From the NCBI GenBank assembly GCA_013824115.1, contig PNNG01000005.1:3075-67074 (forward strand): DNA of 64,000 bases, in the 5' to 3' direction. Below are positions 4,981-45,824 of this stretch, one piece after another. The notes beneath the pieces were generated by a model. That model had not been told where the DNA came from. It searched no databases and saw nothing but the letters and a program-made list of their open reading frames with translations. The position numbers and the translations under genes were made by a program. Numbering within the stretch: position 1 is the first letter of the stretch; each line of letters starts with the position of its first letter. The DNA is from Sphingobacteriaceae bacterium. GTDB lineage: Bacteria > Bacteroidota > Bacteroidia > UBA7662.

Positions 4981-5010
4981 TCCACCACCTTCAATTCATC
5001 TTGTGGATAA

Positions 5011-5042
5011 TTTGCACGAGAAGCGGATTTATACTACTTTTG
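5011..5042 (+). promoter_or_regulatory. Putative Bacteroidota promoter (-33 TTTG, -7 TACTTTTG) for rimP-nusA-infB
   Basis: TTTG at 5011-5014 and tacttttg at 5035-5042, 20 nt apart. This matches the TTTG / TAnnTTTG consensus and lies about 50 nt upstream of the rimP ATG. Confidence 0.4.
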
Positions 5043-5090
5043 CAATCGAAAACGCGTGAGGGGACCAAAAGTCCCCTCTTTCATTTGCGT

Positions 5091-5558
5091 ATGCTGAACA
5101 AGGTAAAGAACAAAGTTGCTAATGCCCTAGACCAGATTCTGGCCAACGGCGATCATTTTGTGGTGGAAGTGAAAATCACCGCCGACTTGCGCAAAATTTG
5201 GGTGGCCCTCGACGGCGACAACGGTGTAGACATTGACTATTGCGCCGAAGTAAGCCGGAAGTTGGGTGCCGAACTCGACGAGCTTGAAGATTTGGGTGCT
5301 TATGTACTCGAAGTAAGTTCGCCGGGTGCCGATGCGCCTTTGCGTTTTATCCGCCAGTATCCCAAACATGTGGGTCGCGAAATGAAGGTGAAGCTCACCG
5401 ATGGCAGTGAATTCAAAGGCGTGCTCGAAGCGGTTGGTACAGGTACGCTCAGCTTTGCCTATACGCACAAAGAAAAAGGCAAAAAGGCCGAGCAGCGCAC
5501 GCGCACTCTGCCTTTTGAAGAAGTAGAAACAGCAAAAGTTATCATATCCTTTAAATAA
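5091..5558 (+). CDS. rimP: Ribosome maturation factor RimP
   Basis: The ORF 5001-5558 is trimmed to the internal ATG (MLNKVKNK...). It sits immediately upstream of nusA-infB in the conserved rimP-nusA-infB order. The EVSSPGADAPL motif is typical of RimP. Confidence 0.8.
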   Translation: MLNKVKNKVANALDQILANGDHFVVEVKITADLRKIWVALDGDNGVDIDYCAEVSRKLGAELDELEDLGAYVLEVSSPGADAPLRFIRQYPKHVGREMKVKLTDGSEFKGVLEAVGTGTLSFAYTHKEKGKKAEQRTRTLPFEEVETAKVIISFK

Positions 5559-5564
5559 GAAAGC

Positions 5565-6803
5565 ATGAACAGCAGCGAACTGATCGAATCCTTTTCGGAG
5601 TTTAAAGAACTCAAGAATATCGATCGCGCTACCATGATGCGCGTCCTCGAAGACGTTTTCCGCAGCATGGTTCGCCGCAAATTCGGTACCGACGAAAATT
5701 TCGACATCATCCTCAACACAGAAAAGGGTGATTTGGAAATTTGGCGTAACCGCGAGGTAGTAGAAGACGCTTCAGAAGAAGCCGGTCAGACCGACAAAAT
5801 CACCTTGAGCGAAGCCCGCCAAATTGAGCCCGATTTCGAAGTAGGTGAAGAAGTGTCGGACGAAATCAAGCTCGAGCATTTTGGTCGCCGTTCGATTTTG
5901 GCAGCCCGCCAAACCCTGGTGCAGCGCATCCTGGAGCTCGAAAAAGACAACATCTACCAGAAATACAAAGACCGTGTAGGCGAAATCGTTACCGGCGAAG
6001 TGTATCAAATCTGGAAGAAGGAAATGTTGGTGCTCGACGATGAGGGCAACGAGCTCATCCTGCCCAAAAACGAGCAAATTCCTGCCGATTTCTACAAAAA
6101 AGGCGATGCCGTTCGCGGCGTGGTTTTGCGTGTAGAAACGCAGAATACCAGTCCCCGCATCATCATGAGTCGCACCGCACCGGCCTTCCTGGCGCGTTTG
6201 CTTGAGTTAGAAGTGCCCGAAATTTTCGACGGGCTCATCACTATCAAGAACATCGTGCGTGAGCCCGGCGAGCGTGCGAAAGTAGCCGTTGAAAGCTACG
6301 ACGACCGCATCGACCCAGTGGGTGCCTGCGTGGGCATGAAAGGCTCGCGTATCCACGGCATCGTGCGTGAATTGCGCAACGAGAGCATCGACGTGATCAA
6401 TTTCACCAACAATATGCAGCTGTTTATTACCCGTGCTTTGAGTCCGGCCAAAATCAGCAGCATGGAGCTCGACACCGACCGCAATAAAGCCAGCGTATAC
6501 CTCAAGCCCGACCAAGTGTCGTTGGCCATTGGTAAGGGCGGTCACAATATCCGCTTGGCTGCCAAGCTCACCGGTTTCGAAATCGACGTATTCCGCGATG
6601 TGGTAGAAGACGATAGCGATGTGGATCTGGACGAATTTGCAGACGAAATCGATAGCTGGATCATCGATGAACTAAAAGGCATTGGCCTCGATACCGCGAA
6701 AGCCGTTTTGGCTGTAGGTGCCGAAGAGCTGGTGCGCCGCACCGAACTCGAAGAAGAAACTGCCGCTCAGGTGTTGGCCATTCTTCGTGCCGAATTTGAA
6801 TAA
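5565..6803 (+). CDS. nusA: Transcription termination/antitermination factor NusA
   Basis: 412-aa ORF with an S1 domain and KH domains (VGACVGMKGSRI, AIGKGGHNIRLA) in the conserved operon context. Confidence 0.95.
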   Translation: MNSSELIESFSEFKELKNIDRATMMRVLEDVFRSMVRRKFGTDENFDIILNTEKGDLEIWRNREVVEDASEEAGQTDKITLSEARQIEPDFEVGEEVSDEIKLEHFGRRSILAARQTLVQRILELEKDNIYQKYKDRVGEIVTGEVYQIWKKEMLVLDDEGNELILPKNEQIPADFYKKGDAVRGVVLRVETQNTSPRIIMSRTAPAFLARLLELEVPEIFDGLITIKNIVREPGERAKVAVESYDDRIDPVGACVGMKGSRIHGIVRELRNESIDVINFTNNMQLFITRALSPAKISSMELDTDRNKASVYLKPDQVSLAIGKGGHNIRLAAKLTGFEIDVFRDVVEDDSDVDLDEFADEIDSWIIDELKGIGLDTAKAVLAVGAEELVRRTELEEETAAQVLAILRAEFE

Positions 6804-6851: not shown

Positions 6852-9800
6852 ATGTCAGAAGGAAGTATCAGGATAAAAAAAGCAGCCACTGAGTTTAACA
6901 TCAGTGTGGCGCACGTTGCCGATCACCTGGCCGCTAAAGGCTTTACGGTGGACAGCAACCCCAACGCCAAGATCACCGATGAAATGTATTCGGTGCTGCT
7001 GCGCGACTTTGGTCAAGATAAAAAGATCAAAGAGCAGGCCGCCGCCATCAGCATTGGCAGGCAGGGCAAGGAGGATGTGGTGCTCGACAAAAAAGATTTT
7101 GCCGCGCCTGCTCCCAGCGAGCCCGAAGCCGATGAGGTGCTCATCAAGGGCCTCAACAAACCCGCCGCAGCCCCTGCTCCGGCCCCTGCCGCACCCGCCC
7201 CGCGCGAAACGGCAACCGAAGGCGATAAGTCGGGCCTGAAAGTGCTCGGCAAAATCGATTTGGCCAGCTTGAACAAGCCCAAACCGAAGCCGGCTCCTGA
7301 GCCCACTCCTGAGCCAGCTCCCGCACCGGCCCCCATAGCAGAGGCTCCCAAGCCCGAAGCGCCCAAAGTAGAGGCCCCAAAAGTGGAAGCACCTCAGCCG
7401 GTGGCACCCGCCCCTAAGCCAGAGCCAATTGCTGAAAAGCCTGCTCCAGCGCCCGTGGTTGAGAAGCCCGTGATTGAGAAGCCCGCAGCACCTGCCCCGG
7501 CTCCTGTAGAAACACCCCGTGCCGAACAGTCTGTTCCCACTGCAGCTCCTGCCGCCCCTGTGCTCCCTCCACAGGAAAAAGCAGCAACTGAGACACCAGC
7601 CGCTCCGGCAGCACCAGTGGCTCCTGCCGCAGCAGCCAAATCCGAAGAAAACGAAGAGGCCGATGTGATTCGTGCCAAAGCCGACAAGCTGCAAGGCACC
7701 ACGGTTTTGCGTACCATCGACCTCAGTCAATTTGAAAAGCGCAAGCCTGTGGCCAGCTCGAGCGATAGTTCGGTAGGCCGCCGCAAGCGCAAGCGCAAAG
7801 AAGGTCCTGGTGGCCCTCCTGCAGCCGGTGGTACCCAACAGCCCCAAGGCCAACAAGGCGGCGGAGGTGGCGGTGGACAGCGTCCGGGTGGTGGCCAAGG
7901 TGGACAAAACCGTGGCCCTGGTGGTCCCGGCCAGCATAACCGCAACAACCAAGGCGGCCCTGGACAAGGACGCCGCAACCAACCTGCGCAAACGCTGGGT
8001 CCGAAGGCCGAGCCTACCGAAAAGGAAATTCAAGACCAAATCAAGGCCACCATGGCCCGTTTGCAAGGCGGCGTGAAAACCGCCAGCCGGGCGAAATACC
8101 GCAAGCAGCGCCGCGACCTCAACGATATTCGTGAAGGCATGGAGCTTGACGAGGCAGGCAAAATGAAGCTGCAGGTAACTGAGTTTGTTACTACTGGCGA
8201 GTTGGCTGGCTTGATGGAAGTGCCCGTGGGTGAAGTTATCATGAACTGCTTTTCGCTCGGTTTGGTGGTAACCATCAACCAGCGCCTCGATGCCGAAACC
8301 ATTACGGTGGTGGCCGACGAGTTTGGTTACGATGTGGAGTTCATCTCTGCAGATGCCAATGAGCCCATGATTGAAGAGGAAGACAGCGAAGAAAACATGG
8401 TTCCGCGTTCACCCATTGTAACCATCATGGGTCACGTCGACCACGGTAAAACCTCGTTGCTCGACTTCATTCGCAAAGAAAACGTAATTGCCGGTGAGGC
8501 CGGGGGCATTACCCAGCACATTGGCGCATATGCAGTACAATTGTCGAACGGCAAGGCCATTACCTTCCTCGATACACCCGGTCACGAAGCCTTTACGGCC
8601 ATGCGTGCCCGTGGTGCCAAGGTAACCGACATTGTGGTGATTGTAGTTTCTGCCGATGACAACGTAATGCCACAAACCAAAGAGGCCATCAGCCACGCAC
8701 AAGCGGCGGGTGTGCCTTTGATTTTTGCCATCAACAAAATCGACCGTCCCGACGCCAATCCGGAGCGCATCCGCGAGCAGCTGTCGGCCATGAATATTTT
8801 GGTGGAAAGCTGGGGTGGTAAATACCAAGACCAGGAAATTTCAGCCAAAAAGGGGATCAACATCGACCAGTTATTGGAGAAGATCTTGCTAGAAGCAGAA
8901 CTGCTTGAATTGAAAGCAGATCCGAAAAAGCGCGCCATTGGTACGGTAATCGAAGCCTCCTTGGATAAAGGTCGCGGTGTAATTACCACCGTACTGATTG
9001 AAAGCGGTACGCTGAGCATGGGTGATCCCATTTTGGCGGGCTCTAATTTCGGTAAGGTAAAGGCCTTGATGAACGAGCGCGGACAGCGCATTATTAAGGT
9101 AGGTCCTTCACAGCCGGTGCAAATTCTGGGCTTCAACTCGGCGCCTACCGCCGGTGATCGTTTTTACGTAACTGAGTCGGATGCCGTGGCCAAAGACATT
9201 GGTACCAAGCGCATGCAGTTGGTGCGTGAGCAGGGCATGCGTACGAAGAAACACATTACCCTCGACGAAATCGGTCGTCGTTTGGCTATTGGCAACTTCA
9301 AAGAGCTCAACCTCGTAGTAAAAGGCGACGTGGATGGTTCGGTAGAGGCCTTGGCCGACAGCTTGATGAAGCTGAGCACCGACCAAATCCAGGTGAACGT
9401 AATCCACAAGGGCGTGGGACAAATCAGCGAATCGGACGTAATGCTCGCCTCGGCTTCCGACGCCATCATTGTAGGCTTCCAGGTACGTCCGCTCGCCTCT
9501 GTGCGTAAGCTGGCCGAGCAGGAAGAAATCGATATCCGCACCTACAGCATCATCTACGACGCGATTGATGAGATCAAGTCGGCGATGGAAGGCATGTTGG
9601 CGCCCACCTACGAAGAAAAGGTGGTTTGTACGGTGGAAATCCGCGAGGTGTTTAAAATCTCGAAAGTGGGTACCATTGCAGGTTGTATGGTTACCGATGG
9701 CAAAATCAATCGCAACACCAAAGTACGGGTACTGCGCGATGGCATCGTGATCCACACCGGCGAACTCGAATCATTGAAGCGCTTCAAAGACGACGTGAAA

Positions 9801-9911
9801 GAAGTGGCCAAGGGTTACGAGTGCGGTTTGAACATTGCCAACTTCAACGACATCAAAGAAGGCGACATCATCGAAGGTTACGAACGTGTAGAGGTGAAAG
9901 CCAAGTTGTAA
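6852..9911 (+). CDS. infB: Translation initiation factor IF-2
   Basis: 1019-aa ORF. GTPase motifs [16 protein letters not shown] and NKID. Long Pro/Ala-rich and Gly/Gln-rich low-complexity N-terminus. Confidence 0.95.
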
Positions 9912-9937
9912 GGGCCAATCGGCTCATAAAAGAAAAG

Positions 9938-9964
9938 CCGCTTCCGAAAGGGGGCGGTTTTTTT
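9938..9964 (+). terminator. Rho-independent terminator of infB
   Basis: Hairpin ccgcttcc-GAAA-gggggcgg (8 bp including G-U pairs) followed by a T-run at 9958-9964. Confidence 0.7.
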
Positions 9965-10031
9965 GTTGGGAAGAGATGAAAATCTGCTGCTGTTGGCTGT
10001 TTAGCCCCTTTGGCCATCCAAAACCGAAATG

Positions 10032-11063
10032 CTATTTCCTTTTCTTAAGCTGTGTTTCAAGCAATTGGAGGTCCTCTAAATCGGCCTGTTTAGCTTCAAA
10101 CTGCTTTCGGGCAGCATCAAATTTTTCATATTCGTGTCGCACGCGCTCTTCCATCATCGCGTGAGAAATAGAACCAGAATTTTGTAGAACCTCCTTATCA
10201 TTAAACTGCAGAATTCGGTCTACATTTTCTTTCCAAAACGACAAGGTAATGTCTTTGCGTTCCTTCACCCTAAGTTCTGCGGTTTCTAGAAAAATCACCG
10301 TCAAACGGTTGAGCGTGTCCAACTCATCTGCAGTTAGGTAGTTTTTGGCAATTACGATGTCGTGCTTTCGCACCTTACTTCCTTTCCAAGTGGTGAGACC
10401 CATATTAGGTGCCATTGCATCGGCCCTGTTAACAATAATTTCTGCTGCGGTTTGATTTACTACAGCATAAAGCAGCTTATTCTGGGTTTCTGCAAAAAAC
10501 ATTTGTGTTGCTTTGTCCGTGGCGTCATAATCGCTGCTCAAAGCGAGTAAATCGCGTATTTTTTGATAAAAGCGTTTTTCCGAAGTGCGTATTTCTCGAA
10601 TCCGCTCTAAGAATTCATCGAAATAATCGGGACGGCCATCGGGGTTTTTCAAGCGCTCGTCATCCATTACAAAACCCTTGATCATGTATTCGCGCAAGTT
10701 CTGATTGGCCCAAATTCTAAACTGGGTGCCACGCTTACTTCGAACCCTGAATCCAATGGCTAAGATCATGGCCAACGAATAAAAAGTAACCTCGTATTGT
10801 TTACCATCAGTCGCAGTTGTTAAGTAATTCTTAATAACTGAATTTTGATTTAACTCTTTCTCTTTCAGTATGTTTGAGATATGCATGCTGATGTTCGGAA
10901 TAGAGGTGTCAAAAAGTTCGGCCAGCTGCTGTTGGTTCATCCAAACGTCGCCATCGCGGGCGTACAAAGCCACACTGGTCGTGCCATCGGCGGTATTGTA
11001 AATGATAAGCTCAGAACCCACAGGCGAAATTTTTATAAAGTTAGCATCAAATGCGCAATTCAT
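10032..11063 (-). CDS. RhuM-family protein
   Basis: The N-terminus ...SELIIYNTADGTTSVALYARDGDVWMNQQQLAELFDTSIPNISMHISNILKEKEL matches the RhuM-family pattern from memory. Start uncertain: ATG 11063 or GTG 11021. Visibly AT-richer than its flanks. Confidence 0.75.
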   Translation of the reverse strand: MNCAFDANFIKISPVGSELIIYNTADGTTSVALYARDGDVWMNQQQLAELFDTSIPNISMHISNILKEKELNQNSVIKNYLTTATDGKQYEVTFYSLAMILAIGFRVRSKRGTQFRIWANQNLREYMIKGFVMDDERLKNPDGRPDYFDEFLERIREIRTSEKRFYQKIRDLLALSSDYDATDKATQMFFAETQNKLLYAVVNQTAAEIIVNRADAMAPNMGLTTWKGSKVRKHDIVIAKNYLTADELDTLNRLTVIFLETAELRVKERKDITLSFWKENVDRILQFNDKEVLQNSGSISHAMMEERVRHEYEKFDAARKQFEAKQADLEDLQLLETQLKKRK

Positions 11064-11108
11064 GATGAGCAATTCAATTCCGCTGGATGGCAAGAACCGT
11101 ATAATCAA

Positions 11109-11200
11109 TATGACTTCGAACGCGTGGTGAAGGCCAAGCTATAAGGGCCTATTGGCTCATGAATAAAGAAGCCGCTTCCGAAAGGGGGCGGCTTTGTTGT
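11109..11200 (+). repeat. Displaced, diverged second copy of the infB 3' end plus terminator hairpin
   Basis: It reads ...DFERVVKAKL* followed by gccgcttccgaaagggggcggc. The infB end reads ...[11 protein letters not shown] followed by the same hairpin at 9870-9964. Roughly 80% identity by eye, with a one-codon indel. Confidence 0.85.
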
Positions 11201-11246
11201 TTGCAGGGAGTGTATGTGATTGATGCTTATTATTCGCTGTGCCACG

Positions 11247-11254
11247 TACTTTTG
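11247..11254 (+). promoter_or_regulatory. -7 box TACTTTTG of pnuC (leaderless geometry)
   Basis: tacttttgTGCCatg: the TAnnTTTG box ends 4 nt before the pnuC ATG at 11259. Confidence 0.4.
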
Positions 11255-11258
11255 TGCC

Positions 11259-11822
11259 ATGTCAATCATCTCGCTTCTTGAAACCGTTGCCGCTATTTTT
11301 GGTGTGCTAAGCGTGGTGATGGCCCGTTTTGCACACATTGGGGTGTTTCCTACCGGTTTGGTGAGCACCCTTCTGTACATTTACATTTGCTGGGGTGCTG
11401 GTTTGTATGCCGATATGGGTATCAATGTTTGGTATAGCCTGCTAAGTGTTTATGGCTGGTGGCGCTGGTTGCAACCCAAAGCAGGCTTGGAGGAGCGTGC
11501 AGTAAGTTGGTCAAGCCCCCAACTGCGCCGAGCCAGTTTGCTTTTGACGCTGGCTGCCTGGGCAGTGCTTTACTTCGTTTTGCGAGCGTTTACCGACAGC
11601 ACGGTTCCCGTAGCCGATGCTTTTACCACCGCGGTAGCTATTGTGGGCATGTACCTCATGGCCGAAAAAAAGGTGGAGAACTGGTTGGCTTGGTTGGTGG
11701 TAGATGTGGTGTCGGTAGGCTTGTATGCATACAAAGGGCTCTATATATCGTCACTGCAGTTTGTGGTTTTTACGGCTTTGGCTTGGTGGGGATGGACAAG
11801 TTGGAAAAAGCTAGCGAAGTAG
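11259..11822 (+). CDS. pnuC: Nicotinamide riboside transporter PnuC
   Basis: Polytopic membrane ORF. The segments ...GVLSVVMARFAHIGVFPTGLVSTLLY... and ...YGWWRW... are typical of PnuC. The ORF is trimmed to the ATG at 11259. Confidence 0.8.
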   Translation: MSIISLLETVAAIFGVLSVVMARFAHIGVFPTGLVSTLLYIYICWGAGLYADMGINVWYSLLSVYGWWRWLQPKAGLEERAVSWSSPQLRRASLLLTLAAWAVLYFVLRAFTDSTVPVADAFTTAVAIVGMYLMAEKKVENWLAWLVVDVVSVGLYAYKGLYISSLQFVVFTALAWWGWTSWKKLAK

Positions 11823-11911: not shown

Positions 11912-11919
11912 CTATATTT
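11912..11919 (+). promoter_or_regulatory. -7 box TATATTTG upstream of the 2OG-oxygenase gene
   Basis: Exact TAnnTTTG match about 47 nt upstream of the ATG at 11966. Confidence 0.35.
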
Positions 11920-11965
11920 GCAGTTTGCTGAAAAATTAACGTATTTGAACCCTAGAAATTCACTT

Positions 11966-12919
11966 ATGTCACACGCCAATATTCCATCTATCGATCTCCA
12001 TCATTTTACCCAAGGCACCCCCGAGCAACGCGCTGCCTTTGTGAAAGATTTGGGTGAAGCCTACGAAAACGTGGGTTTTGTAGCGGTTAAAAACCACGGG
12101 TTGAGCGATGGGCTCAGCGCCGATTTGTATGCACAGGTAAAAGCCTTCTTTGCCCTGCCGCAAGAGGTGAAAGACCAATATGAAATTGCCGGCTTGGCCG
12201 GACAACGCGGCTATACGGGTTTCGGAAAAGAGCACGCCAAGGGCCGCAGTACAGGCGATTTGAAGGAGTTTTTTCAATTTGGCCAAACGGTTACCGATGG
12301 TGACCCTGTGAAAAGCGAATACCCCGACAATGTGCAGGTGAACGAGTTGCCGTATTTTAATCCCAAAGCCATAGAAGCCTACCGAACGCTGGAAGAAGCC
12401 GGTAGGCAAATGCTGAGGGCCATTGCTTTGTTTTTAGAAGTCGGTGAAAACTATTTCGACGACAAAATCCACAACGGCAATAGCATTTTGAGAGCCATCC
12501 ATTACGGGCCCATTACCCACGAACCGAAAGACGCGGTGCGTGCGGCAGAACACGAAGACATCAACCTCATTACTTTGTTGATGGGCGCATCGGCCGACGG
12601 ACTTCAGATTTTGAATAAAAACAACGAATGGGTATCGGTAACCGCCTTACCCGAGCAAGTAGTGGTAAACGTAGGCGATATGCTGCAGCGTTTGACCAAT
12701 AACCGACTCAAGTCGACTACCCACCGCGTAGTGAATCCACCCCGCGAGCAGTGGGGAAGTTCTCGTTATTCGATTCCCTTCTTCCTCCACCCCCGTTCGG
12801 CCATGCGTCTCGATTGTTTGCCGCAATGTATCACGGCCGAAAACCCCTTGCATTATGCCCCTATCAGTGCAGGCGAGTACCTCGATGAGCGCTTGCGTGA
12901 AATTGGATTGAAAAAGTAA
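11966..12919 (+). CDS. 2-oxoglutarate/Fe(II)-dependent oxygenase (isopenicillin N synthase-like family)
   Basis: The DIOX_N-like N-terminus (IPSIDLHHF...FVAVKNHG) and the HxD...H core (AEHEDINLITLL ... STTHRVVNP) fit the family. Confidence 0.8.
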   Translation: MSHANIPSIDLHHFTQGTPEQRAAFVKDLGEAYENVGFVAVKNHGLSDGLSADLYAQVKAFFALPQEVKDQYEIAGLAGQRGYTGFGKEHAKGRSTGDLKEFFQFGQTVTDGDPVKSEYPDNVQVNELPYFNPKAIEAYRTLEEAGRQMLRAIALFLEVGENYFDDKIHNGNSILRAIHYGPITHEPKDAVRAAEHEDINLITLLMGASADGLQILNKNNEWVSVTALPEQVVVNVGDMLQRLTNNRLKSTTHRVVNPPREQWGSSRYSIPFFLHPRSAMRLDCLPQCITAENPLHYAPISAGEYLDERLREIGLKK

Positions 12920-28131: not shown

Positions 28132-28743
28132 TTATAAGAATGGAGAAAAGGCTTGCTCAACTTTAAGCCGCATCTGATTCCAAGTTAATGGCTTTATCAT
28201 TTGAGGCATCGTTTGTTTCTCAGCATCTTCAAAGTACAAGAGGCTTTTCACTGCCAAAAAGAGGCTACTACTCGGGTATTTTTGTTGATACAACTCAAGG
28301 AGTTTATTTGGGCTAAACACTTCCAGTAAAAAATACAAATCCACAAAGTCTTTGATATTTCCCCTATTGGTGATTGCATGAATTTTCATGGCTGCAATGT
28401 CATCTACCGAGGCAATCCAAAATCCTTCGGCCTCTTCTGGGGCTTTTAACCACCCATTCGGGTAATTAACAAAATCAACTTTAACCCCTTTTACTGAAAA
28501 TACTTTGATGCTCTTGGAAGTATAAGTCAGTTGACTTTTTTCAATCTTGTTCAAATACAAATCAACAGCGTCAAAATTAATATGCTGCACTGAAAACAAA
28601 TCGAGGTCAATGGATAATCTATGGCCAAAGTGCATCGCCAAGGCTGTTCCCCCAACCAAGATAAATTCGTCGAAAAAACGAATTTGTCGAATTTCCTTCA
28701 ACACTTCTAAAGTGTCTGTTCGAACTGCGTGAATTTGGTACAT
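28132..28743 (-). CDS. AbiEii/DUF1814-like pol-beta-fold nucleotidyltransferase (putative toxin)
   Basis: 203-aa ORF with the NTase signature LVGGTALAMHFGHRLSIDLDLF (GG...DxD). AT-rich. Confidence 0.65.
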   Translation of the reverse strand: MYQIHAVRTDTLEVLKEIRQIRFFDEFILVGGTALAMHFGHRLSIDLDLFSVQHINFDAVDLYLNKIEKSQLTYTSKSIKVFSVKGVKVDFVNYPNGWLKAPEEAEGFWIASVDDIAAMKIHAITNRGNIKDFVDLYFLLEVFSPNKLLELYQQKYPSSSLFLAVKSLLYFEDAEKQTMPQMIKPLTWNQMRLKVEQAFSPFL

Positions 28744-29000: not shown

Positions 29001-30362
29001 TTAGTTGTCGCTGGGAATCAATAATTCGTAGCGGTACGAATAAAAGGCTACATCGTTGGCCTCCACCTTCACTTCGTACTCCAATTTTTGCACTTCTTGC
29101 TTGGTTTTGGCTTTCAAATCGAGGTACTGATTAGCAAACCAATAGTTGCGGCGGGTGTCGGGAACACACTGTTTCACCACCCGAACCCGACCCGCTTCGA
29201 GACTGGTATTCCTGATTTCAATGCGGCCAACGTACAGATAGCTATCGTAACGCATGCCATTTAAGTCTACCGCACGCTTTTTTACCTTCACAAGTCGGGC
29301 ATTGTCGGTGAGGATGTAAGGCGAAGGTCCATACTCCATGCGCACGGTGGTTTTTTTAGGAATTTCGGGCAAATTGGCCGGAATATGCCCCAGACTCATG
29401 CCTTTGCGCTCATATATTGCCGACGAAAACCAATCCATATTACTGCCATTGGTCAGGCTCAGATAGCGTTTTCCGGTGGTTTTGCTGGTAAGGGTTTGGT
29501 CGCCGGGTTCCCATGCCGGAACAGCTACTTCATCGCTCAAAGCCAGGGGTACTTCGGCAGATAAAACCTGGAAATTGGTGCGTGTATTGGCCGGAATACT
29601 CACTCCTGTGAATCGGAAAGCAGCTTGACTGCTAAAGGCCGATACTTCACTCACTTCGTATGGGTGATTATAGTACAGTACCTCCATGTCTTCGAGTGCA
29701 AATGGGGCCGTTATGCTCAAGTCGAGACTCATTTCGGTTTTTTCCTTGTCAAAATCAAGCAAGTAACGCGCATCACTTGAGAAGTCGCTTGCAGGAATAA
29801 GAATGGTGGTGTTTAAATCAGCAAAATCGCCCGTGAGGTATACGGTAAGCACCCTGTCGAAATGCTTTACCATCGCTCCCGTTTGCAAGGCTTTTCCCCC
29901 GGCAAGATGTTGGATAGATTTAACGGGAATGGCTTCGACAGCTGTGCCTGTACGTAAAAAAACCATTTCGGCTGCTGGATGAACGGACAACAATTCGCCA
30001 GAATAACCCACGCTTTCGCGGCCTTCAAAAGCCTCAATGGTCACATTTTGTCCCACATTGGCCTTCAATAAATCGAGTAGGCTACCCAGGGCCTCCAACT
30101 TTTCTTTTTCCAATTGGTGTACTTGATAGTTCACCAGTTTTTCGCGTTCGGTCAAACGCACCTGGATGCCAGCCGCCACCGCTTGTGCTGGCAAGGTCAT
30201 TTGGTAGCGTGCCTGCCTGGTCGACATCAGGCCGCTGTATTCTAAAATCGCTGCACCATCGCGATACATGTGCAAGCGACGCAATTTGAGTTCGTTCTGC
30301 GCAAAACCGGCCGAGCTGCTCAGCAGCAAGGCCAACATCAACATCATGGGCTTTTTCATCAT
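29001..30362 (-). CDS. DUF4139-family protein (second paralogue, no coiled coil)
   Basis: Starts at the ATG at 30362 (MMKKPMMLMLALLLSSSAGFAQ, signal peptide), 1 nt after the manC stop. Beta-rich with a C-terminal region like DUF4139. Family assignment from memory. Confidence 0.65.
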   Translation of the reverse strand: MMKKPMMLMLALLLSSSAGFAQNELKLRRLHMYRDGAAILEYSGLMSTRQARYQMTLPAQAVAAGIQVRLTEREKLVNYQVHQLEKEKLEALGSLLDLLKANVGQNVTIEAFEGRESVGYSGELLSVHPAAEMVFLRTGTAVEAIPVKSIQHLAGGKALQTGAMVKHFDRVLTVYLTGDFADLNTTILIPASDFSSDARYLLDFDKEKTEMSLDLSITAPFALEDMEVLYYNHPYEVSEVSAFSSQAAFRFTGVSIPANTRTNFQVLSAEVPLALSDEVAVPAWEPGDQTLTSKTTGKRYLSLTNGSNMDWFSSAIYERKGMSLGHIPANLPEIPKKTTVRMEYGPSPYILTDNARLVKVKKRAVDLNGMRYDSYLYVGRIEIRNTSLEAGRVRVVKQCVPDTRRNYWFANQYLDLKAKTKQEVQKLEYEVKVEANDVAFYSYRYELLIPSDN

Positions 30363-30363
30363 C

Positions 30364-31446
30364 TCACAAGTATTTATCACCTACCTGCCGCTTGATTTCG
30401 AGCAGCATGTTCTTTATTTCGTTTTCTTGGTCACGCGGACAAATCAACAGGCCCTTGGGAGAATCGGCAACAATGTAATCTTCCAGTCCGCTAATGATTA
30501 CCAGTTTATCGCCTGCCACTTCAACAAGGCAGTTGCTGGCATCGTACATCACCACTTGTGCCCCCGTTACGGCATTTCCCAAGTAGTCTTTTTCGTGGGT
30601 GGCATACACCTCGCCCCACAGGGTAATGTCGGTCCAGCCAAAATCACCCAATAATACCTTCACCTTATCTTCTGCCTTGTAAATAATGGCTTGTCGGAAG
30701 GCGATGGTCTCGCACTGGGGATAAATTTTTTCGATGAAGCGTTCTTCTTCTTCTTCGTTGAGGTATGGCCGCATTTCTTCGAAAAGCTGTGCGGTATCGG
30801 GCAGGTGCTCGGCATACAAATCGAGCAAAGTGCCCACGCTTACCACCTTAATGCCCGAGTACCATAAAAAATCGCCCGATCGGTGAAAGGCATTGGCAAT
30901 TTCTTTGGTGGGTTTTTCGGTGAAGGTTTTGATGTTGTAAACCTGGTTGTCGATGGCTTCGGGTAGGTATTGAATATAGCCGTAATTCACCTCGGGCCTG
31001 CTCACCTTGATGCCTACTGTAAGCAAAACCGCATTTTTAAGTATGTACTTAAGGCCCGCTTTGATCACTTTACCAAACCTATTTACATCGGTAATCACAT
31101 GATCGCAAGGCATAATCACTACATCGGCCTGTGGGTCGCGGTTGGCAATTTTGTTGATGGCATACAAAGTGGCTGTAGCCGTGTTCTTGCGCATGGGTTC
31201 TACCACCATTTGTGATGGCAAAATGCCCGGAAGTTGCTCTTGTACCAAATGCACCCATTGCTTGTTGGTTACCACCAGCACTTGTTCGGCCGGGGTAAGG
31301 TGCAAGGCGCGTTGGTAAGTCGATTGTAGCAATGTTTCGCCGGTGCCCAACAAGTCGACAAACTGTTTGGGCTTTTGATGGGTACTCATGGGCCACAACC
31401 TGCTTCCCACCCCTCCGGCCATGATAATCACGTAAAGCTTATTCAT
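30364..31446 (-). CDS. manC: Mannose-1-phosphate guanylyltransferase
   Basis: 360-aa ORF. The N-terminus MNKLYVIIMAGGVGSRLWPMSTHQKPKQF is the classic NTP-transferase/ManC signature. Confidence 0.85.
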   Translation of the reverse strand: MNKLYVIIMAGGVGSRLWPMSTHQKPKQFVDLLGTGETLLQSTYQRALHLTPAEQVLVVTNKQWVHLVQEQLPGILPSQMVVEPMRKNTATATLYAINKIANRDPQADVVIMPCDHVITDVNRFGKVIKAGLKYILKNAVLLTVGIKVSRPEVNYGYIQYLPEAIDNQVYNIKTFTEKPTKEIANAFHRSGDFLWYSGIKVVSVGTLLDLYAEHLPDTAQLFEEMRPYLNEEEEERFIEKIYPQCETIAFRQAIIYKAEDKVKVLLGDFGWTDITLWGEVYATHEKDYLGNAVTGAQVVMYDASNCLVEVAGDKLVIISGLEDYIVADSPKGLLICPRDQENEIKNMLLEIKRQVGDKYL

Positions 31447-44660: not shown

Positions 44661-45824
44661 TCAAACACCATTCATTTCGACGGGCTCATCGAAATAATCG
44701 AAGAAGTTGGCACTATCTACCATGTTCAGCGTGGCATGGGCATAGGCGGTGCGAAACGCAGCCGGAAAACGGGCGGGTTTGTCCCACTTCCATTTGATTT
44801 CGTAGGCCTTCATGCCTCCCTTTTCGTGCACTTCCACCAAATCTACCTCCTGCTGGTTGTAGGTGCGCCAAAAATAGAACTGGGTTTCTTTGTCGCCCGC
44901 TGTTTCTTGACGCTTCTTGAATTCGCTTACCACAAAATTCTCCCAAAGTGCCCCCAAATCGTTGCGCAAACCCGGCTGCCTGAAATCGCCAATCAGGGCA
45001 TTGCGGACCCCCGTATCATAGAAATACCACTTGGCACCTTTAGAAATTTCTTTCCGCGGATTGCTGCTGTAGGCAGGCAGTTTGAAAAGGATGAATACCT
45101 TGCTCAGCAAATCGAGGTAGCTTTCTACGGTAATGCGTGACAGGCCCAGTTGGCTTCCCAGTTCTTGATACGACACTTCGGAACCCACTTGAAAGGCAAT
45201 GAGACGCAATAATGATGATAGTTTGCTCGCGTTTTTAATACCTTCATAAGCCAAAATGTCTTTCAGCAGGTAGTCTTGCACCAGATTTTTGAGGTACATC
45301 TCCTTTTCGGCATAATCGGGTGCCGTTACCACTTCGGGATAGCAGCCATACAGCATGCGGTCGCGCAAGGCGGCGTATTCGGTGGCATAGCCGTAATGAT
45401 TGCGTAATTCGTTGTTGGTAAAGGGATGTAGCTGAAAACGCAAACTGCGGCCGGTGAGTGGTTCGCCTGTTTGGTTGCCCAAATCGAAAGCCGAAGAACC
45501 CGAAGCAATGATAGTAATGTTGGGCAGGCTGTCGATCATGAGCTTGAGTATGCGGCCAATGTCAGGCACCGCTTGTGCTTCATCGATGACCACCAGCGTT
45601 CGGTTACCGATAATTTGGCGGTAATTGGCGGCCGAACGACGGGCGAGGAGCTCCTGCACGTCCATGTCCTCTCCATTAAGCACCAATGCTTCGTCGCCTC
45701 TTTGTGCAGCCAACTCGTGGATGAGCACGGTTTTGCCTACTCTTCGGGTACCAAAAATGACCAATACTTTGTTGCGATGCAACCAGCGCTGCAAGGTCTT
45801 TTCCAAAAGTCGGTGTACAGCCAT
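44661..45824 (-). CDS. AAA-type ATP-binding protein with DUF4143 C-terminal domain
   Basis: 387-aa ORF with Walker A GTRRVGKT and Walker B LVVIDEAQ. The C-terminal half resembles DUF4143 (ENFVVSEFKKR...). Confidence 0.8.
   Translation of the reverse strand: MAVHRLLEKTLQRWLHRNKVLVIFGTRRVGKTVLIHELAAQRGDEALVLNGEDMDVQELLARRSAANYRQIIGNRTLVVIDEAQAVPDIGRILKLMIDSLPNITIIASGSSAFDLGNQTGEPLTGRSLRFQLHPFTNNELRNHYGYATEYAALRDRMLYGCYPEVVTAPDYAEKEMYLKNLVQDYLLKDILAYEGIKNASKLSSLLRLIAFQVGSEVSYQELGSQLGLSRITVESYLDLLSKVFILFKLPAYSSNPRKEISKGAKWYFYDTGVRNALIGDFRQPGLRNDLGALWENFVVSEFKKRQETAGDKETQFYFWRTYNQQEVDLVEVHEKGGMKAYEIKWKWDKPARFPAAFRTAYAHATLNMVDSANFFDYFDEPVEMNGV

Follow-up and report, generated by a model that had tools for sequence, protein, structure and literature searches.

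Within a 64,000-nt stretch of contig PNNG01000005.1 from a Sphingobacteriaceae bacterium (assembly GCA_013824115.1; hereafter the window), a reverse-oriented gene of the RhuM family lies between infB and pnuC and is flanked by two diverged direct copies of the infB 3′ end with its terminator hairpin, here called copy A and copy B. We propose, with moderate confidence, that this duplication is a recombination scar, left when the host's homologous recombination system joined an incoming infB-end copy to the resident infB end. As such, the locus would add one more case to a familiar class of scars at cargo hot spots. Close relatives, all metagenome contigs located via their RhuM and PnuC homologues, are designated by locus numbers; L081 shares the window's arrangement, and L103 carries rhuM at an unrelated locus. 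The features of the window at issue are the following.

6852..9911, + strand: infB open reading frame (ORF) for translation initiation factor IF-2 (1,019 aa), last of rimP–nusA–infB
9881..9967, + strand: copy A, the native infB end, with the last 10 codons and stop (9881–9911), spacer (9912–9934), hairpin core (9935–9957) and T-run
9931..9964, + strand: intrinsic terminator hairpin A, with the GC core GCCGCTTCC-GAAA-GGGGGCGG at 9937–9957, an A/U extension and a T-run
9968..10031: rhuM-specific segment of 64 nt from hairpin A to the rhuM stop
10032..11063, − strand: rhuM, 343 aa from the ATG at 11063, PF13310 match
11064..11116: rhuM upstream leader, conserved with L081 and L103
11117..11201, + strand: copy B, the orphan infB end, with pseudo-coding part (11117–11144), spacer (11145–11168), hairpin core (11169–11191) and T-rich tail
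11161..11202, + strand: hairpin B, terminator-like, flagged by a terminator scan
11202..11258, + strand: pnuC upstream region, conserved in all clade loci (alignment of 10 loci)
11259..11822, + strand: pnuC, a nicotinamide riboside/mononucleotide transporter gene (PF04973, E = 8e-55)

Formal alignment of copy A (9881–9967) with copy B (11117–11201) gave 73 matches in 88 columns (83.0%), with one 3-nt and one 1-nt gap, and a Smith–Waterman score of 99, compared with a maximum of 24 in 100 shuffles. The diverged repeat around the RhuM gene, first noticed by eye in the original prediction, is thereby borne out, together with its 3-nt indel and its identical 23-nt hairpin core; its bounds are corrected, from starts at 9870 and 11109 to starts near 9881 and 11117, with ends near 9967 and 11201. 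Similarity beyond the hairpin, without which the repeat could not have been upheld, is significant: the part upstream of the hairpin alone (9881–9930 versus 11117–11163) scores 50, whereas 500 dinucleotide shuffles peaked at 28. The window contains exactly two instances of the 23-mer AAGCCGCTTCCGAAAGGGGGCGG, at 9935–9957 and 11169–11191; chance predicts none even with 3 mismatches allowed. As had also been claimed, only a reverse-oriented, AT-richer gene separates the copies; rhuM, on the minus strand, is the sole gene there and matches PF13310, with a GC content of 0.41–0.44 versus 0.50–0.55 in infB.

Strong copies B are confined to the window and L081 (~95% identical overall), with alignment scores of 99 and 114. 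A profile hidden Markov model of the infB end, built from the alleles of nine loci with the window among them, matched the two at E = 3.6e-20 and E = 2.4e-24, respectively. The L081 copy has no indel and reads ...ERVVVKAKL*, placing the codon loss in the window, where copy B reads ...DFERVVKAKL* with its stop at 11142–11144, one codon fewer.

The last 100 residues of InfB are 100% identical in 13 related loci, identifying copy A as the native, functional end, in agreement with the original prediction. Copy A, in which the InfB C-terminus (11 protein letters not shown) is followed by the stop at 9909–9911, is thus evidently the working infB end with its intrinsic terminator. Copy B is, to judge from the alignments, a non-coding orphan second copy of ~87 nt at the far border of a 1.15-kb rhuM cassette. 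Its proposed role as a surrogate 3′ end falls away, as infB retains its own end and the extra copy is orphaned at the far border. For annotation, copy B should be entered as a non-coding relic and not called a gene fragment of functional significance.

Each copy contains a GC-rich stem-loop followed by a T-run (TTTTTTTGTT in copy A, CTTTGTTGTTT in copy B) and is accordingly predicted to act as an intrinsic terminator. The RNA of hairpin A folds at −21.5 kcal/mol (z = −4.95) on the plus strand and at −8.8 kcal/mol on the minus strand; that of hairpin B folds at −24.8 kcal/mol (z = −5.55) on the plus strand and much more weakly on the minus strand. This strand bias arises because two T–G wobble pairs turn into C–A mismatches. 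A search of 1.4 Mb of fetched DNA, with 3 errors allowed, found the hairpin solely at infB terminators and cargo borders. A dispersed repeat of the repetitive extragenic palindrome or miniature inverted-repeat transposable element type was therefore rejected, the window itself holding two copies. An Rfam search of the region returned no family at the gathering score (best 23.5 and 18.7 bits, far below it), so copy B is not explained by a pnuC riboswitch or a known small RNA.

Copy B does not appear to be drifting freely. Between the window and L081, four-fold-site divergence is 0.15–0.24 in infB, rhuM, pnuC, chrA and uvrB. Both intergenic regions are conserved between these two genomes that have copy B, with 1 change in 120 nt at 9912–10031 and 6 changes in 195 nt plus a 3-nt indel at 11064–11258; copy B itself shows 2 substitutions and one 3-nt indel in 84 nt. 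Such low divergence relative to four-fold sites suggests that copy B is conserved like regulatory DNA. Its present role may be that of an insulating terminator before pnuC, of a part of the rhuM/pnuC control region, or both.

Compared with the copy A alleles of the clade, copy B matches at 58–68 positions per 78–79 columns, and copy A alleles match one another at 64–73. In L081, the coding parts of copies A and B differ at four positions, of which three are synonymous by our own count, a tiny sample. A position within the allelic range and synonymous differences fit an origin of copy B as a formerly working infB end of a related lineage, albeit on small numbers.

A copy-B-like sequence also stands upstream of rhuM at a site away from infB. 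The L103 locus, in which cdsA, a Bro-N fragment, rhuM and then gdh follow one another, matches window positions 10038–11189 with 83.5% identity over 1,155 nt. This homology takes in rhuM and its leader, then the pseudo-infB end including the stop, and finally the spacer and the hairpin as far as ...GGGGC; its limit lies within the 3′ arm of the hairpin, and the sequences are unrelated beyond it. The L103 rhuM is about equidistant from all clade rhuM genes (83.5–86.6%), which points to a linkage between rhuM and an infB-end copy that is probably ancestral. The L103 infB-end copy matches copy A at 58 of 80 positions and copy B at 56 of 79, values that do not tell its descent apart. One part of the original prediction, that one copy is native and the other is tied to the incoming gene, gains support from this locus.

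L103 also bears on a purely local origin, in which slippage or unequal crossing-over would have duplicated the infB end and terminator in situ, rhuM would have inserted later and copy B would have decayed. The hairpin variant GGGGGCGG, with its T–G wobble pair, speaks for such an event, as it is present in both copies only in the window and L081 and is unseen in other clade alleles; the L103 hairpin relic also has G at this position. We consider a local origin very improbable nonetheless. Copy-B-like sequence lies beside rhuM in L103, away from infB; the mostly synonymous differences in L081, few as they are, look like those of a gene end that was at work in a different lineage; no locus has two copies without cargo between them; and copy B is conserved between the window and L081 and shows no decay.

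A scan for the InfB C-terminus in species-representative genomes recovered only Sphingobacteriaceae with up to 79% identity, none with pnuC or rhuM near infB. The order infB...pnuC is kept in all clade loci and in the outgroup, and the synteny implied by the original prediction stands. Its proposed cargo-free ancestor, infB–terminator–pnuC, has no counterpart among the loci: no empty allele was seen in ~20 of them, and the gap is always filled, with the following contents.

Window and L081: rhuM with copy B
L082/83, L088–90 and L084/85: rhuM fused to a truncated Bro-N gene
L087 and L101: intact Bro-N gene alone
L086, L092, L093 and L102: rhuM, Bro-N relic and methyltransferase gene
L091: Bro-N and methyltransferase genes, no rhuM

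In the outgroup clade, whose PnuC is 66–69% identical, the gap holds RelE-type or other small gene pairs and no repeat. These outgroup pairs are on the same strand and include a RelE-family toxin (L094 5391–5934, L096 5439–5690 and L098 3358–3883), so the outgroup, too, uses the gap for small addiction or defence genes. The data show that the infB–pnuC gap is a cargo-swapping hot spot, and the rhuM, Bro-N, methyltransferase and toxin–antitoxin contents mark it as one for small defence-type genes. Starting at the Bro-N relic and going rightwards, L091 and L092 share 99.6% identity, but in infB only ~92%, a mosaic indicating that homologous exchange shuffles the locus. A highly conserved anchor and homologous exchange are thus found together: the InfB C-terminus is 100% identical in the clade, L091 and L092 form a mosaic, and a 2OG-Fe(II) oxygenase gene is near-identical between the window and L081. 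This oxygenase gene (window 11918–12919) differs from L081 at 2 of 139 four-fold sites, compared with 0.15–0.24 in its neighbours, a pattern suggesting that recombination recently carried it from one lineage to the other. Segment identities across infB gave no clear imported tract within that gene.

Loci with rhuM and a Bro-N relic, including L082, L084 and L088, have no significant second copy by Smith–Waterman or nhmmer. A decayed relic upstream of pnuC in L082, L084, L087 and L088, hinted at by eye, was supported by neither method and was dropped. Copy B is missing from the L082, L084 and L088 types because rhuM there abuts the truncated Bro-N gene: the rhuM 5′ end is joined near the Bro-N 3′ end, with more internal deletions, and the rhuM leader is common to the window and L082-type loci only in its first ~15–25 nt. 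The infB-end copy was probably lost from such rhuM loci through illegitimate joins to Bro-N. The 64-nt segment at 9968–10031 is common to all rhuM loci at infB and absent from Bro-N loci and L103. In L103 (reverse-complemented, 1484–1614), a 131-nt internal Bro-N fragment (codons ~85–128) abuts the rhuM stop codon, and in L082 Bro-N codons 1–79 are kept on the other side of rhuM. The two Bro-N breakpoints fall within ~15 nt of each other (codons ~79 and 85), which no model explains; attempts to derive a single history from them gave no consistent one.

The methyltransferase loci contain a different second copy, which nhmmer detects at E = 2e-7 to 3e-6. It is composed of GCCAAGTTGTAAGGGC, matched at 16 of 16 positions in L091/L092, together with a spacer and the hairpin. 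With second copies in methyltransferase loci, including the rhuM-less L091, and orphan ends with other cargo in Pedobacter (below), the duplication is, on present alignments, not specific to rhuM. L084 looks like an allele without the methyltransferase module, with the border at GACAAGCTGT. A third GCCAAGTTGT, an exact 10-mer for which ~0.003 occurrences are expected, is tentatively placed at the right edge of the module in L091/L092 and is decayed or absent in L086/L093. In the second copy of L086, L091, L092, L093 and L102 (for example, L092 interval 1642–1700), the hairpin has its loop and bulge inverted and faces the methyltransferase gene, as though it were that gene's terminator.

Single cargo genes in one orientation, each followed by a copy of the same hairpin, recall an integron. 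A reverse-oriented gene with its hairpin would then be a cassette, the hairpin an attC-like site for a trans-acting recombinase and the infB terminator the landing pad. Sites number cassettes plus one in L091/L092, and the 1.4 Mb of fetched DNA contain no further instance of the hairpin. We nevertheless rate this the least probable of the explanations. No IntI-like gene was found in the loci; the hairpin is a perfect terminator stem of 22–23 nt without an R/L box pattern by eye, and attC sites measure 57–141 bp; the cargo genes appear to have their own upstream regions; and many junctions are illegitimate. Integron cassettes and clusters of attC sites lacking integrases were rejected as a classification for want of an integrase and for the 22–23-nt terminator stem, attC features being judged by eye only. 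A further reading treats the infB stop and terminator as a landing pad for integrase-less single-gene defence cassettes (RhuM, Bro-N and methyltransferase), each with an infB-end/hairpin attachment site, that would hop in, out and between loci via hairpin recombination. We regard it as unlikely. Were it true, L103 would be a secondary site, and the locus would exemplify integron-like accretion in Bacteroidota via host recombination or an unrecognised trans-acting recombinase.

Orphan infB ends extend beyond the clade. The Sphingobacteriaceae loci recovered with the InfB C-terminus, 80 in all, were each screened for a repeat of the locus's own infB end; three contain orphan ends or terminators, 84–89% identical and 0.5–6 kb downstream of infB. 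Coordinates and positions relative to the infB stop are as follows.

8295–8431 in L062 (Pedobacter africanus): first orphan, 137 nt, 84.7%, −110 to +26 of the stop, 0.5 kb downstream
13798–13841 in L062: second orphan, spacer and terminator, 6 kb downstream
9317–9401 in L028 (metagenome chromosome OW818692.1): 86 nt, 83.7%, frameshifted, −85 to 0, 1.6 kb downstream
9914–9968 in L076 (Pedobacter sp. ok626): 55 nt, 89%, spacer and terminator, +4 to +55, 2.1 kb downstream

The DNA between these copies encodes a DUF4143 fragment, an outer-membrane beta-barrel protein, a peptidase S41, DUF5648, MACPF and helix-turn-helix proteins and an unknown protein; none of the genes between the L062, L028 and L076 copies encodes a recombinase, and the cargo is ordinary accessory DNA. 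The left border of the duplicated segment varies from −110 (L062) and −85 (L028) to −30 (window and L081), −9 (methyltransferase loci) and +4 (L076). Orphaned 3′-end fragments of the anchor gene thus lie downstream of inserts with variable borders, as in homology-anchored insertion.

Integrase-mediated integration is the main rival to host homologous recombination, and we judge it possible but rather unlikely. A small integrative element, or what is left of a prophage or larger island, would have entered at the infB stop or hairpin by means of an attP mimicking the infB end and terminator, using a tyrosine or serine recombinase that is encoded elsewhere or lost. On this view copy A would represent attL and copy B attR, their core being either the 23-nt hairpin or GCCAAGTTGT, and the whole would resemble a cis-mobilizable element without its own integrase. 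Direct repeats with an identical core around a single AT-richer gene, next to an intact target gene, are as expected of an integrative element. Furthermore, the infB-end copy moves with rhuM to the unrelated L103 locus, where the homology ends in the hairpin as at an attP crossover; cargo-specific sequence starts directly after the hairpin A T-run in all loci; and the methyltransferase module, present in some loci and absent from others, has GCCAAGTTGT at its bounds. Mobile elements also typically carry RhuM, Bro-N and orphan methyltransferases. However, none of the 47 window ORFs that encode 100 aa or more is an integrase, transposase or relaxase gene, and neither is any called gene or checked ORF of the related or Pedobacter loci. 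Scans of viral contigs (IMG/VR) for the infB-end motif and close RhuM relatives gave no match, nor did any phage carry them, and plasmid and phage BLAST searches returned only distant rhuM coding matches without flanks. The left borders of the duplicated segment also differ widely. On the empty attB and the fixed crossover expected of such an element, the loci point both ways: ~20 of them contain no empty site and the left borders vary, yet the L103 border lies in the hairpin and that of the methyltransferase module at GCCAAGTTGT. Finally, three rhuM locus types lack the right-hand repeat, the rhuM–Bro-N joints fall at arbitrary points, and L103 has no left-hand copy.

The hairpin itself had been put forward as a crossover or recognition site. 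The first role is plausible, since the homology between the window and L103 ends in its 3′ arm and cargo sequence starts right after hairpin A. The second, recognition by a dedicated recombinase, is not favoured because no integrase was found.

Host homologous recombination is favoured by the lack of a recombinase among the genes and ORFs checked in any locus, by the variable left borders and by the combination of homologous mosaics with illegitimate joins; it also has precedents in flanking duplications (PMC3240628) and in a sequential displacement proposal (PMC5361080). Incoming DNA carrying rhuM beside its own copy of the infB end and terminator would recombine with the resident infB end and terminator, each partner would contribute one copy, and both would be retained as direct repeats. 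The agent would be the host recombination system, presumably RecA-dependent, without a dedicated integrase. By one route, a circularised fragment would undergo a Campbell-type single crossover within the ~87-nt homology, at a position that we infer to lie most easily in the 23-nt identical hairpin core. By the other, recombination would be anchored in the highly conserved infB and completed by an illegitimate far join. In Escherichia coli, circular DNA that bore a piece of the target gene inserted by one crossover and left flanking duplications of 109–950 bp (PMC3240628). For type VI secretion system (T6SS) and Rhs loci, the strings of orphaned 3′ regions have been attributed, in a proposed model, to anchored ‘sequential displacement’ (PMC5361080).

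Several points weigh against host homologous recombination. Homology-facilitated illegitimate recombination is rare experimentally (PMC3240628, PMC5361080), and RecA is poorly served by a homology of 87 nt with 83% identity. Neither an empty site (~20 loci) nor a circular form was seen. The L103 border, exactly in the hairpin, and the same 10-mer bounding the methyltransferase module suit a site-specific crossover better, and a trans-acting recombinase could be encoded elsewhere in the genome, the search having covered the 64-kb window and the contigs. The shared GGGGGCGG variant would need gene conversion, or a donor and a resident identical there by chance, and the inverted second hairpin of the methyltransferase loci is predicted by neither model. 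This inverted hairpin, the shared variant and the near-coincident Bro-N breakpoints of L082 and L103 are left unexplained by every model.

The arrangement resembles several known systems without coinciding with any. In orphan 3′-end arrays of Rhs, contact-dependent inhibition (CDI) and T6SS effector–immunity loci, as here, homology is anchored in a conserved gene upstream of the variable DNA, cargo arrives by the anchor while older material and anchor 3′-end fragments are displaced downstream as orphans, and plain homologous replacement accounts for cargo differences among close strains (Kirchberger et al. 2017, PMC5361080). Those arrays are anchored in a toxin gene whose tip varies, whereas the anchor here is the essential housekeeping gene infB; furthermore, the present orphans are short (10–137 nt) and include the terminator, and the cargo consists of independent reverse-oriented genes. 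The Campbell-type crossover, the main product in PMC3240628, likewise leaves an insert between direct repeats, needs no dedicated recombinase and is reversible via the repeats; that experiment used 109–950 bp of identical DNA, whereas here the repeat is ~87 nt at 83% and a natural circle is hypothetical.

Diverged 3′-end direct repeats around AT-richer foreign DNA, with the target gene intact, are also shared with mobile elements. Genomic islands, integrative and conjugative elements and integrative and mobilizable elements integrate at gene 3′ ends using an attP with a replacement end, and cis-mobilizable elements keep att sites without an integrase. The present locus differs in that no integrase was found, only one gene is inserted, the repeats have variable borders, and the copy fused to the gene is not the element-linked one, which is orphaned. 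Defence hot spots flanked by core genes exist in other bacteria. The infB–pnuC gap is like them in being a fixed core-gene gap with differing small defence-type genes (RhuM/PDC-S05, Bro-N, methyltransferase and toxin–antitoxin pairs), and unlike them in its site, the infB terminator of uncultured Sphingobacteriales-like Bacteroidota, and in cargo borders that carry copies of the flanking-gene end.

A single-gene anti-phage candidate can thus lodge behind an essential, highly conserved gene without a visible mobility gene, and across the genus small defence-type genes of different kinds reuse the same gap. A broader pattern is suggested by three more Sphingobacteriaceae genomes with orphan infB ends, in which the conserved infB 3′ end may be a recurrent recombination anchor for the uptake of accessory DNA. 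If the repeats permit excision and re-insertion, they would constitute a very simple cassette system.

The cargo gene of the window is assigned with high scores. Its product matches PF13310 (Virulence_RhuM) at E = 1.6e-108 and 362 bits (cut-off 33.7) over profile positions 1–250 of 252, and the PADLOC models of PDC-S05, a single-gene phage-defence candidate, at E = 4e-145; an exact sequence look-up of the protein returned no record. An alternative TTG start at 11108 would extend it to 358 aa. RhuM-like proteins have been proposed as toxin domains alongside restriction–modification systems (PMC3710099). In E. coli B, a PDC-S05 representative of foreign origin gave protection against T7, T5 and T4, with the plating of T7 and T5 reduced ~1,000-fold (bioRxiv 10.1101/2024.09.26.614923); it came from another organism than the present one. 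By analogy, the window rhuM is an anti-phage candidate. Across the genus, rhuM nucleotide identity is 87–95%, with divergence roughly in step with infB, and the gene is broken into two ORFs in L088 (4495–5483, 156 + 158 aa) and L093 (2705–3742, 169 + 163 aa), where it appears to be decaying. Parallel divergence and splitting indicate an old, dispensable resident of the genus, and rhuM is by this measure no recent arrival in the genome.

Two further features concern the cargo proteins. The methyltransferase (358 aa, Methyltransf_11/25; L102 ~11033–11248, L086 and L091–L093) has an N-terminal region like RhuM residues 21–105 (29% identity, E = 2e-6), and the Bro-N genes, too, open with a small N-terminal domain of comparable kind; a DNA-binding head may thus be common to all three cargo types. 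AAA_14/DUF4143 ATPase genes were noted in the window (44661–45824, minus strand), in L084 (3144–4373) and in L062 (7990–8148). Among the genes 3′ of pnuC they occur in L084/L085 only, and in L062 as a fragment in the P. africanus infB insert; this family seems to be recurrent cargo.

The surrounding genes complete the layout. Upstream of infB lie two genes.

5001–5558: rimP, first gene of rimP–nusA–infB
5565–6803: nusA, between rimP and infB

The infB homologues of relatives contain IF2_N, GTP_EFTU and IF-2 domains. The N-terminal third of InfB (window 6852–8100) is a long low-complexity linker, rich in Pro/Ala/Glu and in Gly/Gln, and is its fastest-evolving part, with 74–82% nucleotide identity (relatives except L081) versus 90–96% in the 3′ third. 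Upstream of pnuC, TACTTTTG (11247–11254) resembles the Bacteroidota −7 promoter box and may represent one. Downstream of pnuC follow, in order, the 2OG-Fe(II) oxygenase gene, chrA, a liaF-like gene, a GNAT acetyltransferase gene and uvrB. Farther along the window, amid housekeeping genes, an AbiEii-type nucleotidyltransferase toxin gene (28132–28743, minus strand; type IV toxin–antitoxin or abortive infection) neighbours a 459-aa ORF (29001–30380) without a Pfam match.

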